This document shows, piece by piece, positions 58,819-63,577 of a stretch of DNA of 64,000 nt. A model generated the notes under the pieces. The model made no database searches. It worked only from the letters and a program-made list of their open reading frames with translations, and was not told the DNA's origin. The position numbers and the translations under genes are program-made. Origin of the DNA: an uncultured delta proteobacterium (GTDB taxonomy: Bacteria; Myxococcota; Myxococcia; Myxococcales; Anaeromyxobacteraceae); contig CAVYBH010000015.1 of assembly GCA_963766715.1 (NCBI GenBank), positions 224,001-288,000 on the forward strand, in the 5' to 3' direction. The first letter of the stretch is position 1. Every line of letters starts with the position of its first letter.

Positions 58819-59436
58819 TCAGGGACGCTCGACCTCGACCGCCTCGACCCAGACCTGCTCGCAGGCGCCCGAGCCGACGTCGTCCCGGGACAGGCTGGTG
58901 GGCGACTGGAAGGCGGTGCGCCCGGCGCGGTCCCGGATCACCACGTCGACGAGCTTGCCTCGGAGCGTCACCAGGTCGCCCTCGCGGATCCGCTTCATCT
59001 CCCGGGCCACCTCGTCCGACGCGGGCACCAGGTGGTGGTTCGCCACGTGGCGCTCGATGACCTGCTGCCCGGGAAAGGCCCCACCGCCGTCGTGCCACCA
59101 GCTGACGTACCGGCCGGAGAGGTGGAACTTCATGTGCGCCAGCACCTCGGGGGTGGCGACCGGGCCCCAGGCGAGGGCCAGGTCCATGGGGAGGACGAAG
59201 TCCCACTGATCGAGCAGCGTCCGGCTGGTGTCGACCGCGTAGCCGGTGATGCGGTAGCCGGCGCGCGGCGTGAGGGTGACGTGGTGCTCCTTGGCCTCGA
59301 ACTCGATGGGCGCCTCCCCGGCGAGCGCCACCTGCTCCGGCTCCGCCGCGGCGCGGGCCGGATCGACGCGGGCGCGCCAGTCCCGGCAGCCGGCGAGGAC
59401 GAGGAGCGCGGCCAGTGCCAGCCGGCGCGCGATCAT
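58819..59436 (-). CDS. hypothetical lipoprotein
   Basis: Lipobox LVLAG-C; PMDLALAWG, ANHHLVPA, SLSRDDVGSGACE. Confidence 0.65.
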   Translation of the reverse strand: MIARRLALAALLVLAGCRDWRARVDPARAAAEPEQVALAGEAPIEFEAKEHHVTLTPRAGYRITGYAVDTSRTLLDQWDFVLPMDLALAWGPVATPEVLAHMKFHLSGRYVSWWHDGGGAFPGQQVIERHVANHHLVPASDEVAREMKRIREGDLVTLRGKLVDVVIRDRAGRTAFQSPTSLSRDDVGSGACEQVWVEAVEVERP

Positions 59437-59923: not shown

Positions 59924-60679
59924 GTGCGCCTCGACACCTATGGCTGGCTGGTCCTCCTGGAGATCGCGCTGGCCGTCCCCACCCTGCTCTCGCTCGTCTT
60001 CATCCCCGCCCCCTACGGCCGTCACGAGCGGAAGGGCTGGGGCCCCACCATCCCCGCGCGGGTCGGCTGGATCGTCATGGAGAGCCCGGCGGTCTGGTTC
60101 TTCGCCTGGGTCTACTTCCAGGGCCCGAACGCGCTGCGGCCGGTGCCGCTCGTGCTGCTCGCCCTCTGGCAGCTCCACTACCTGTACCGGGCCTTCGTCT
60201 TCCCCTTCCTGCTGCGGGCCGAGGGGCGGCGCATGCCGGTCACGGTGGCCGCCATGGCCTTCCTCTTCAACCTGCTCAACAACTGGATCAATGCCCGCTG
60301 GATCTCGGCGATGGGCGACTATCCCGCCGGCTGGCTCTCCTCCACCCCGTTCCTGGTGGGCTCCGCGCTCTTCCTGGGGGGCTTCGCGCTCAACGTGACC
60401 TCCGACCGGACCCTGCGGAACCTCCGGGCCCCCGGGGAGACCGGCTACCGGATCCCCCGAGGCGGCGCCTTCGAGCTCGTCACCGCCCCCAACTACCTGG
60501 GCGAGATCATCGAATGGACCGGCTGGGCCATCCTGACCTGGTCGCCCGCCGGCCTGGCCTTCGCCGTCTACACCTTCGCCAACCTGGCCCCCCGCGCCGT
60601 CTCTCACCATCGCTGGTACCGGGAGCGCTTTCCCGACTACCCTGCGGGACGCAAGGCCTTCATCCCCTTCCTCCTCTAG
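59924..60679 (+). CDS. 3-oxo-5-alpha-steroid 4-dehydrogenase (steroid 5-alpha-reductase, SRD5A/DET2-like)
   Basis: APYGRH, GWIVMESP, HYLYRA, SDRTLRNLR, YRIPRGG, PNYLGEIIEW, NLAPRA..HHRWY, RKAFIPF. Confidence 0.9.
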   Translation: MRLDTYGWLVLLEIALAVPTLLSLVFIPAPYGRHERKGWGPTIPARVGWIVMESPAVWFFAWVYFQGPNALRPVPLVLLALWQLHYLYRAFVFPFLLRAEGRRMPVTVAAMAFLFNLLNNWINARWISAMGDYPAGWLSSTPFLVGSALFLGGFALNVTSDRTLRNLRAPGETGYRIPRGGAFELVTAPNYLGEIIEWTGWAILTWSPAGLAFAVYTFANLAPRAVSHHRWYRERFPDYPAGRKAFIPFLL

Positions 60680-60690
60680 GTGGACAAAGA

Positions 60691-61644
60691 GTGAAGATCC
60701 TCCTCACCGGACCCTTCGGCAACATCGGTTCCCACGTCATCCCCGAGCTGCTCCGCGAGGGGCACCAGGTCCGCGCCTTCGACCTGGACACCCCGGCGAC
60801 CCGCAAGGCGGCCCGCGACCTCGGCAAGAAGGTCGAGCCGGTCTGGGGCGACGTCCGCGACGCCCGGGCGGTCGCGCGGGCGGTCGAGGAGATGGACGCG
60901 GTGCTGCACCTGGCCGCGGTCATCCCCCCCGGGTCGGACGAGGACCCCGAGCGCACCCGGGCCGTGAACGTGCAGGGCACCGCGAACGTGGTGCAGGCCA
61001 TCCAGGGGCGCTCGCGCAAGCCGAAGCTCCTCCTCACCTCGACCTTCGACGTGCACGGCCACACGCTCCAGAAGCCGCCGCCCCGGCGGGTCGACGACCC
61101 CGTGGTGGGGACCGATCCGTACACGGAGAGCAAGATCGCGTCGGAGGCGCTGGTGCGCGAGTCGGGGCTGGACTGGTGCATCTTCCGGTTCACCGACGTG
61201 CCGATCATCGGCCTGCGCGACCCGCACCCGATCATGTTCGAGATCGGGCTCGACAACCGCATCGAGGCCCTCCACCCCGACGACGCCGCCACCGCGGTGG
61301 CCCGGGCGCTGCGGACGCCGGCGGTGTGGGGGCGCACCCTCTTCGTGGGCGGCGGAGCCTCCTGCCAGCTCACCTACCGCGAGTACCTCACCCGCATGCT
61401 CCGGGCCATGGGCATGGACATGCTGCCCGACGAGGCCTTCAGCGACGCCGAGTACCCCACCGACTGGGTGGACAGCGAGGAGTCGCAGCGCCTGCTCCGG
61501 TACCAGCGGCACAGCTTCGACGACATCACGGCCGACATCGCGAAGTGCCTGGGGTGGAAGAAGGCCTTCGTCCCCATGGCCTCGCCGATGGTCCGCAAGA
61601 AGATGCTGGAGATGTCGCCCTACTGGAAGCAGCGGCAGCGGTAG
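60691..61644 (+). CDS. extended SDR (epimerase/dehydratase or 3beta-HSD-like)
   Basis: TGPFGNIG, WGDV, HLAAVIPP, YTESK (YxxxK). Confidence 0.8.
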   Translation: MKILLTGPFGNIGSHVIPELLREGHQVRAFDLDTPATRKAARDLGKKVEPVWGDVRDARAVARAVEEMDAVLHLAAVIPPGSDEDPERTRAVNVQGTANVVQAIQGRSRKPKLLLTSTFDVHGHTLQKPPPRRVDDPVVGTDPYTESKIASEALVRESGLDWCIFRFTDVPIIGLRDPHPIMFEIGLDNRIEALHPDDAATAVARALRTPAVWGRTLFVGGGASCQLTYREYLTRMLRAMGMDMLPDEAFSDAEYPTDWVDSEESQRLLRYQRHSFDDITADIAKCLGWKKAFVPMASPMVRKKMLEMSPYWKQRQR

Positions 61645-61680: not shown

Positions 61681-62463
61681 CTACTCGCCCGCGGCGGTCT
61701 TGTGGTGGGCGTGGCCGTGCGAGTGGGCCGACGCGATGTGCGGCTTCCCGTGGCGCCCCGGAAGCACCTTGGCCGGGCGCGCGCCCGGGCCGGCCGGGAT
61801 GGCGTCGTCGGGGGGCTTCGTCGCGAAGACGCGGTTGACGATCGGCGCCATGAGACCCAGGCTGGTGGCCGCCAGCTTGCGCAGCGGGTTGCGCGAGGCC
61901 TCGCCGTTGGGGAGCGGCTGGCTCCAGGCCTTCCCGAGCAGGTCCATGTACATCCCCACGGTCTGCCCCGCGGTGGCGAAGTCGAGCGTGGAGAGGATCT
62001 CGTCGGCCAGGCCGAACGGCATGGACGTCATGATGGGGCCGCGCATGTACTCGGTGGCCCAGACGCCGTCGGTGAAGTTCATGGCGCGAGCCTGGCCGGG
62101 TCCCACCCAGACGCGGTCGCCCGGCTTGTAGATCCGCTTCTCGAACTGCCCCTCGCCGAAGTAGTGCATCTCGCCGTCGATGACGGTGTCCCAGAAGCCG
62201 ACCGCGTGGCGCCCCGAGTGCCCCTCGGAGCCGATGGGGGTGCCCCAGATCATGAGGTATTCCATCGACGACGCGAAGTAGAGCTTCATCTGGATCATCG
62301 CGCCGCCGGCGATGCTGTACATCCAGGGCTGCGAGCGGTCAATCCGGCCCGGGTAGGCATCCTCCCAGGCGTCGGCGATGGCGTCGAACATCTCGGGCTT
62401 GGGCTTGCCGATCCCCTGCAGGGAACACTCGTGGATGACGTCGGCGTCGAAGATGTAGTCCAT
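61681..62463 (-). CDS. ERG2 / sigma-1 receptor family protein (C-8 sterol isomerase-like)
   Basis: AGGAM...YFASSMEYLMIWGTPIGSEGHSGRH...DTVIDG...YKPGD...GPGQA...WATEYMRG...PFGLADEILSTLDF follows the ERG2/Sigma1R motif order. Confidence 0.88.
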   Translation of the reverse strand: MDYIFDADVIHECSLQGIGKPKPEMFDAIADAWEDAYPGRIDRSQPWMYSIAGGAMIQMKLYFASSMEYLMIWGTPIGSEGHSGRHAVGFWDTVIDGEMHYFGEGQFEKRIYKPGDRVWVGPGQARAMNFTDGVWATEYMRGPIMTSMPFGLADEILSTLDFATAGQTVGMYMDLLGKAWSQPLPNGEASRNPLRKLAATSLGLMAPIVNRVFATKPPDDAIPAGPGARPAKVLPGRHGKPHIASAHSHGHAHHKTAAGE

Positions 62464-62541
62464 GGCCAGGCTCCGGTGGGGTGGGAGAAGGCCGGGATTC
62501 TACAACGCCTCGACGCAGTGTGTCGAAGCCCCCGGTACGGG

Positions 62542-63577
62542 TCAGGCCCTCCCCGGGCGGCGGGGCGGGATGGGCCGGTTGAGGGGGCTGTCCGGGTGGG
62601 TCTTCATCCAGTCCCAGGCGTCCCGGAGCGTCTGCACGACCGGCCGCGGGGCATGGCCGAGCTCCTCGCGCGCCTTCCGGTCCCGGATCTCGAAGTCGAC
62701 GGCCAGGGTGTGCACCGCATAGGGGGTGAGGAGCGAGCGTCGCCCGGTGACCTTCTCGAAGACGGGCGCGAAGGCGGCGATCCCCGCGGCGACCCGGAGC
62801 GGGATGAAGACCCTCGGAGGCGTCCTCCCCGCCAGGCCGGCCAGGTTCCGCATCAGCTCGCGGACGGTCATGCGCTCCCCGGAGAGGAGGTAGCTCTCCC
62901 CCTTGCGCCCCCGCTCCGCGGCGAGCACGTGGCCGATGGCGACGTCGCGGACGTCGACGAAGTCGTAGCAGCCTTCCGTCCCCGCCGGCACGGGGAAGCG
63001 GGAGAACAGGACGATGACCTCCCCGATCTCGGAGAGCCGGTAGTCGTGGGGGCCGAGCACGTAGACCGGGTTCACGATCACCGCGTCCAGCCCGTCCCGG
63101 ACCGCGTCGAGCACGATCCGGGAGGCGGCGGCCTTGGCCTTGCCGTAGTCGCCGGGCGCGAGCGCCGGGTCGTAGCCGGCCTCCTCGGTGAGCACGCCCC
63201 CCTTGCCCGGCTCGGTGAGGGCGTGGACCGAGCTCGTGTAGACGAGCCGCCCCACCCCGGCCTCGCGCGCCGCCGCGACCACGTTCCGCGTCCCGTCGAC
63301 GTTCACGGTGCGTACGCTCTCGATGTCGAGCGAGCTGATGCTCACCACCCCGGCCAGGTGGAAGACCACGTCCGCCCCGGCGAAGGCCGCGGGCAGGGTC
63401 GTCGGGCCGCAGCACGTCGCCCTGCACCCGCTCCACGTCGAGGCCGGAGAGCGCGCGGGCCTCGTCGCCCGGCTGCACCAGCGCGCGAACCCGCTTCCCG
63501 CGCCGGAGGAGCTCGCGCACCAGCGCGTTGCCGAGGTGGCCGGTGGCCCCGGTGACGGTCGCGGTCTGGAAGTCCAT
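62542..63577 (-). CDS. extended SDR (HpnA/DFR/3beta-HSD-like), frameshift near 63400
   Basis: VTGATGHLG, VFHLAG, NVDGTRNV, YTSS, YGKAK (YxxxK), VNPVYVLGP, FVDVRDVA.GH. Confidence 0.85.

Follow-up and report, generated by a model that had tools for sequence, protein, structure and literature searches.

Homologues of ERG2 have already been reported from bacteria, none of them characterised, and the ancestral function of the family is described as unclear (Hoshino and Gaucher, PMC8237579, in the text available to us); the accessible portion of that paper's supplement gives no known activity for any bacterial ERG2 homologue. The sigma-1 receptor has the same acid triad without isomerase activity, according to the available parts of PMC4106346 and bioRxiv 10.1101/333765. 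On the side of steroid reduction, the sections at hand report that PbSRD5A reduces progesterone in vitro (PMC7815742), describe DET2 and Treponema reductase activity (PMC11301207), and mention microbial Δ5-sterol reduction in sediment (PMC9495973). The accessible parts of PMC10152446, PMC10202945, PMC10094450, PMC12667688 and PMC3783881 contain nothing on the proteins described below, and we found no paper on their clade or gene block in literature that mostly lay outside subscription journals; the tree and tables of the Hoshino supplement, seen in part, may include members.

Within the window, the whole 64,000-nucleotide stretch of DNA analysed here, one gene encodes a protein of this family, P0002. 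The protein runs from MDYIFDADVIH to ...KTAAGE and matches PF04622 (ERG2_Sigma1R) over residues 2–174 with 149.3 bits against a cut-off of 21, in agreement with the family assignment made in an earlier note on this DNA; it is a real, intact member of PF04622. The match covers profile positions 21–200 and therefore begins past the N-terminal part of the profile. Among proteins of solved structure, it is related to human and Xenopus sigma-1 (E 4e-28 to 2e-24; human 5HK1, 3.6e-28), and the 5HK1 alignment provides the human numbering used below (P0002 position + 34). An AlphaFold2 model built from 31 aligned homologues (mean pLDDT 83, below 50 at residues 244–260) returned only sigma-1 structures as top Foldseek matches (E about 1e-18), with an rmsd of 1.6–1.7 Å over 183 columns at about 33% identity. 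The gene is under purifying selection (dN/dS 0.02–0.12 for codons 1–180 in comparisons with 13 relatives). Many homologues carry the database name 'C-8 sterol isomerase', and NCBIfam has no named family for P0002 or for the neighbouring reductase. The features tested separate P0002 both from sigma-1 receptors and from ERG2 orthologues.

Table 1 Features of the P0002 locus (window coordinates).
Feature	Position	Strand	Remarks
Steroid 5α-reductase, SRD5A1/2-DET2 type	59924..60679	+	PF02544, 179 bits
Extended SDR 'A', NAD-dependent epimerase/3β-HSD-like	60691..61644	+	convergent on P0002 gene
ERG2/sigma-1-family gene, P0002	61681..62463	minus	260 aa; ORF, Pfam and structure match
His run, H242-H254	61702..61740	minus	disordered, variable tail of P0002
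Basic amphipathic helix, P0002 residues 193-212	61828..61887	minus	clade-specific; pLDDT about 90
Cupin-barrel core, P0002 residues 2-174	61942..62460	minus	holds E68/Y69/D92/E138 (human E102/Y103/D126/E172)
Ribosome-binding GGAG	62471..62474	minus	7 nt above P0002 ATG
Sigma-70-like promoter pattern, TCGACA-18-TAGAAT	62497..62526	minus	10/12 match
Imperfect palindrome	62510..62526	minus	overlaps -35 box of promoter pattern
Extended SDR 'B', HpnA/SdmB/3β-HSD-like	62542..63577	minus	upstream of P0002 gene, same direction

The centre of the pocket is kept. In the alignment to human sigma-1, Y69, D92 and E138 correspond to Y103, D126 and E172, as the earlier note had proposed, with E68 at the place of E102 and GHSGR at residues 81–85. 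The broader statement that the ligand residues are intact holds for this acid triad but not for the rest of the pocket, which carries W89A, Y120H, G91I and H154V (human numbers, as in the following). A homologue search found 527 proteins, of which 120 were listed and, with P0002, form a 121-sequence set; sigma-1 W89, G91 (of the GxxxG motif), Y120 and H154 are replaced by A, I, H and V in all 121, and S84, A89, I91, W107, H120, F124, D126, V154, F164, A170 and E172 are invariant throughout this set. Altogether, 21 pocket and structural positions are nearly invariant over the 121 listed sequences, which is what an active site predicts. At the 11 positions that contact progesterone in Xenopus sigma-1 (PMC11224282, from the portion available), six residues are identical in P0002, three are conservative replacements and two are changed (W89A and Y120H). 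Judged by this alignment, the P0002 pocket is remodelled relative to sigma-1 (W89A, G91I, Y120H, H154V). Since G91I moves mammalian sigma-1 toward the monomer (PMC4106346, accessible part), the sigma-1 trimer may be lost in P0002.

The pocket also departs from that of ERG2. In fungal ERG2 representatives (Hanseniaspora, Eremothecium) and in the Polyangium group, D124 goes together with F126 and, in most cases, with H152, a D124/F126/H152 signature that we derived from the present alignment and not from a paper, while a bird sigma-1 has D126 and H154. The signature is absent from the P0002 clade, which has F124, D126 and V or I at 152 and so neither the D124/H152 pair of ERG2 nor the D126/H154 pair of sigma-1. 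Its A89, H120, A170 and G185 agree with fungal ERG2 and not with sigma-1.

P0002 has no N-terminal transmembrane helix (best 19-residue hydropathy, 1.26). Its reading frame is closed by a stop 12 codons above the ATG, and this, together with the GGAG close to the ATG, means that no transmembrane start was missed; we could thus rule out a hidden upstream transmembrane segment, which the earlier note had named as something that would refute it. No 19-residue window exceeds a hydropathy of 1.53 in P0002 or in any of the 120 homologues listed out of 527, and in nearly all of these the start is no more than five residues away from one shared motif. Among 150 listed representatives at 50% identity, 90 cover the core, and 32 of the 90 begin directly at the domain; the cluster of one such representative includes the anchor-less ERG2-family protein of Polyangium aurulentum. 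The close homologues (121 of 121 listed), the representatives and the Polyangium protein together indicate that the anchor-less state is common and normal among bacterial homologues, so that the absence of the helix, correctly observed earlier, is not a trait particular to P0002. The helix formed by residues 193–212 (hydrophobic moment 0.36, net charge +3; mean moment 0.40 and charge +3.0 across 31 aligned homologues) is a candidate membrane contact that could replace the lost anchor; forms of roughly 185 residues do without it.

The His-rich tail described in the earlier note exists, and its codons recur in DNA of a near-identical strain from another sample (one contig over 60979–61772), so the run is real but local. 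It is not the end of the protein, which finishes with ...HHKTAAGE past the run, nor is it conserved: the last 45 residues contain seven His in P0002, four in one homologue and 0–2 in the other 119 listed (120 listed of 527), the 13 genus-level relatives have 1–4 His after residue 212, and many homologues stop near residue 225. Metal binding by the tail therefore finds no support in an unconserved run with pLDDT under 50, and we rejected a metal-binding His-tail protein, there being no conserved His cluster and the tail being disordered.

For placement, we used a quick IQ-TREE run on 94 rows together with FastTree; both trees are unrooted and came with long-branch warnings. The proteins of 81 loci form a single group in IQ-TREE (SH-aLRT 99, branch 0.76), with which FastTree agrees, and the sigma-1 group (SH-aLRT 99) and the ERG2/Polyangium group (97) both stand apart from it. 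P0002 accordingly falls outside the animal sigma-1 clade and outside the fungal-ERG2/Polyangium group in both unrooted trees. These sequence comparisons place it in a separate bacterial clade that lacks the anchor and is associated with steroid-reducing enzymes, with members in Myxococcota, Actinomycetota, Spirochaetota and Chloroflexota. Its relevance to sigma-1 receptor origins, suggested earlier, is limited: the clade is apart from sigma-1 and fungal ERG2, and unrooted trees leave the deep order unsettled.

Other PF04622 lineages also came to light. A sister-lineage protein, P0127 (a 360 aa representative), is a fusion in which an F420H2-dependent (DDN-type) reductase domain precedes the ERG2/sigma-1 domain, and it ends in a hydrophobic C-terminus. 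A group of eukaryote type that begins with a transmembrane segment (P0199, P0176, P0167, P0230 and P0236, with P0176 from Paradermamoeba) shares W107, F124 and D126 with the P0002 clade, and H120 in three of the five; by sequence, this sharing could reflect either convergence or an old relationship. A further group (P0144, P0193, P0198, P0205, P0215, P0228 and P0251) has signal-peptide- or lipoprotein-like starts, which suggests exported bacterial members.

The genes around P0002 point to steroid chemistry. The reductase matches PbSRD5A (7C83, E 1e-88) and human SRD5A2 (E 4e-47), with enoyl-CoA reductase at only E 3e-13; its catalytic Glu and Tyr are aligned and it has the features of SRD5A1/2-DET2 members, with Met, in 29 of 30 loci, in place of the Gln56 that human SRD5A2 requires before the catalytic Glu. 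SDR A and the reductase form an operon on which the P0002 gene converges, and hence P0002 is not co-transcribed with the reductase. SDR B contains a one-base frameshift near 63401 (63401–63410); its reading frame is intact in relatives, and a related contig is one base shorter at 63401. An unlinked classical SDR of the host (G000:C12:340385-341156) also has a one-base frameshift, and both are probably assembly indel errors. The neighbouring SDRs score under every curated NCBIfam cut-off. Two further neighbours conserved in the genus (58819–59343, minus strand, and G000:C15:288131-288820; about 170 and 234 aa) have no Pfam or NCBIfam match.

The TAGAAT element read earlier as a −10 box is present as part of the promoter pattern listed in Table 1, the sole such pattern in 4.7 kb (one observed against 0.2 expected from shuffles). 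The palindrome over its −35 box recurs at 12 of the 14 loci from the genus, even with a different upstream gene, and has one strict copy in the host genome; its position would make it a candidate operator or repressor site. RNA runs covered small shares of the block only, in short, divergent contig pieces.

We counted partners within 3.5 kb, at 110 bits or more, at 81 loci from four phyla, 14 of them from one genus and some on short contigs. A classical SDR was found at 40, SDR A at 35, the 5α-reductase at 26, SDR B at 12 and at least one of these at 61; the remaining 20 of the 81, some on short contigs, have none of the four. The neighbours are enzymes rather than regulators or transporters, with the exception of one MMPL in two near-copy loci, and at a spirochaete locus a different, strong 3β-HSD (PF01073, 224 bits) directly adjoins the PF04622 gene. 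Genome-wide, all 18 related carriers have both the reductase and SDR A; of the 43 non-carriers, six have the reductase and none has SDR A. The related carriers are three genera with one shared gene block, so these counts are not independent. Farther afield, 36 of 50 distant carriers have the reductase, 14 have no match to it, and 28 have no SDR A. In Spirochaetia, all six genomes with PF04622 (one the centre of the draw, one in another clade) have the reductase, compared with 45 of the 195 that lack PF04622. Together, these data show that the P0002 clade is linked to, and co-occurs with, steroid enzymes.

The SRD5A1/2-type reductase itself is far commoner in Spirochaetia than the PF04622 gene (51 of 201 genomes). 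Of 23 inspected loci with an unlinked reductase gene, 5 have an SDR B-like gene next to it, and this pair is often present without PF04622. In the present genus, the locus has no linked classical SDR; the unlinked one of the host is a doubtful stand-in for the usual partner, its type being found in six genomes that lack the PF04622 gene and, as an additional copy, in four with a linked orthologue. One record, titled Bifidobacteriaceae, has the gene and the classical SDR, and its genome matches neither reductase nor cyclase.

The host belongs to the Anaeromyxobacteraceae, as do the closest loci; the others among the best 80 of 139 loci come from Micromonosporaceae, Pseudonocardiaceae, Spirochaetia, Dehalococcoidales and other Myxococcota. 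PF04622 is found in 18 of 61 related genomes, including 13 of 13 within the genus. No triterpene cyclase, squalene epoxidase or P450 match was detected in the host genome (84.6% complete), and a squalene/oxidosqualene cyclase is present in none of the 18 related carriers, the 13 genus relatives included, against a match in 20 of 43 non-carriers. We therefore rejected de novo sterol synthesis in the host. An ERG4/ERG24 search gave no match even in control genomes, and the KshA ring-cleavage family is absent from five of five genus genomes. Among the 50 distant carriers, 23 have no cyclase, 11 a strong hopene-type match (DxDD in 10), 6 an oxidosqualene type with DCTAE and 10 a weak or partial match; five cyclase-bearing loci have no sterol-synthesis family among the neighbours scanned. 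Across 37 genomes of the host family, the PF04622 gene (18) and a hopene-type cyclase (7) never occur together, which may reflect lineage history or a substitution of membrane lipids by scavenged sterols. DNA with the gene block was detected in sediment, wetland and freshwater metagenomes (shares 0.26–0.48).

Our preferred reading, to which we give a probability of about 0.5, is that P0002, attached peripherally to the membrane, isomerises a double bond of a putative substrate within a pathway by which scavenged sterols are reduced toward 5α-stanols. As a cupin enzyme bound peripherally on the cytoplasmic side, it would receive a sterol or steroid into its barrel from the membrane by way of the membrane-facing helices, and the buried acids D92 and E138, with Y69 and H86, would shift a double bond of the ring system by adding and removing a proton. 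The pathway would draw on sterols scavenged from dead eukaryotic matter, with no synthesis of its own: a 3β-HSD-like SDR would oxidise C3 to give the Δ4-3-one, the 5α-reductase would reduce Δ4, and another SDR would turn the ketone into the alcohol of a 5α-stanol. Given how often the reductase and SDR B are found in the absence of the PF04622 gene, the isomerase would most likely be an accessory step for sterols unsaturated in ring B (Δ7, Δ5,7 or Δ8 types). We infer the catalysis, substrate, order of steps and membrane role of helix 193–212. The fold with its triad, the nearly invariant pocket and its ERG2-like A89, H120, A170 and G185, the linkage to steroid enzymes (the spirochaete 3β-HSD and a reductase near PbSRD5A among them), the reductase fusion of P0127 and the lack of both cyclase and KshA argue for this reading. 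Against it stand the missing partners at 20 of 81 loci, the distant carriers without reductase (14 of 50) or SDR A (28 of 50), the F124/D126/V-I152 pocket in place of the ERG2 signature, the triad that sigma-1 has without isomerase activity and the lack of a known activity in bacterial homologues; the convergent gene order, the shared block of the related carriers, the low NCBIfam scores of the SDRs and the Met of the reductase also count against it. The earlier proposal of a soluble or peripheral sterol isomerase or sensor keeps its footing in the fold, the acids and the neighbours; a role in making sterols finds no support.

An orthodox Δ8-Δ7 isomerase of de novo sterol synthesis would fit the family membership, the database names and the oxidosqualene-cyclase motif in 6 of 50 distant carriers, but it is very improbable given a host lacking cyclase, epoxidase and P450, related carriers without a single cyclase, cyclase-bearing loci without sterol-synthesis neighbours, and a protein outside the fungal-ERG2/Polyangium group that lacks the D124/H152 pair. 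Somewhat less improbable, though we still doubt it, is that P0002 carries out the Δ5-to-Δ4 shift that a sterol-to-stanol route requires, for which an Asp/Glu pair within a hydrophobic barrel could suffice, or acts as a C7 dehydratase with the classical SDR partner, which matches 7β-HSDH models. Many 3β-HSDs are bifunctional, however, and perform this isomerisation themselves; the frequent reductase–SDR B pairs without PF04622 and the absence of a linked classical SDR in this genus also speak against this alternative.

Two further alternatives are unlikely, and to nearly the same degree, yet deserve more weight than the ketosteroid isomerase or dehydratase. P0002 could be a non-catalytic carrier or sensor resembling sigma-1, handing a sterol or intermediate between the membrane reductase and soluble SDRs; its D126-type pocket is that of sigma-1, which binds progesterone and DHEAS without isomerase activity (in the source portions available), and many reductase-bearing genomes manage without the gene, but near-invariant polar pocket residues in four phyla, and the company of enzymes rather than regulators or transporters save for the MMPL, favour catalysis. 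Alternatively, the block could act on a non-steroid lipid or enone, such as a terpenoid (a hopanoid or some other) or an aromatic enone. SDR B most resembles the hopanoid-associated HpnA (258 bits, cut-off 368) and the classical SDR partner most resembles mycolate reductase; the strong hopene-cyclase-type match is present in 11 of 50 distant carriers; and the literature found, as far as its accessible text goes, does not establish which substrates bacterial SRD5A enzymes use in nature. This must be set against the zero of 18 related carriers with a triterpene cyclase, a reductase far nearer to steroid 5α-reductases than to enoyl-CoA reductase, and the bona fide 3β-HSD independently recruited beside the gene in the spirochaete.

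A wider possibility, which we offer as tentative and would not expect to hold in full, is that the clade marks an undescribed bacterial sterol-reducing pathway of 3β-HSD-like SDR, 5α-reductase, ketoreductase and sigma-1-like isomerase, present in bacteria of sediment and peat without sterol synthesis of their own, and supplying the Δ5/Δ7-sterol to 5α-stanol enzymes of early diagenesis and the first catalytic D126-type member. Were the block to make 5α-stanols, it would provide genes for the microbial step of steroid diagenesis invoked by biomarker work (PMC9495973, part available), and the P0002 clade, if the isomerase reading is true, would be a soluble model for the ancestral role of the sigma-1 pocket. 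Two cultured Rugosimonospora species carry SDR A and the reductase adjoining the PF04622 gene; with anchor-free proteins, cultured carriers and neighbours that hint at a substrate, the ERG2 family's ancestral role becomes a testable question. The interest of P0002 does not lie in its missing anchor or His tail.

Compared with known systems, P0002 shares with animal sigma-1 (SIGMAR1; 5HK1, 6DJZ, 7W2B, 8W4B) the cupin barrel with flanking helices and the residues E102, Y103, D126, E172, D188, D195, T202 and Y206. It differs in lacking the N-terminal helix, in having the extra basic amphipathic helix 193–212, in the changes V84S, W89A, G91I, F107W, Y120H, I124F, H154V, W164F and A185G, and in its bacterial steroid-enzyme context. 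With fungal ERG2 and its myxobacterial relatives, P0002 has in common PF04622, E172, Y103, A89, H120, A170 and G185, and the P. aurulentum protein (187 aa) is likewise anchor-less; the two form separate clades, D124/F126/H152 in one against F124/D126/V-I152 in the other, and, unlike the ERG2 group, hosts of the P0002 clade mostly have no sterol cyclase. The described stanol routes (the plant DET2 step, gut IsmA and PbSRD5A, the last a close homologue of the neighbouring reductase) follow the same logic of 3β-HSD-like oxidation, Δ4-3-oxosteroid reduction and ketoreduction, and include no ERG2/sigma-1 protein in the descriptions available. Gut coprostanol is a 5β product, whereas the P0002 block points to 5α, on a putative substrate.
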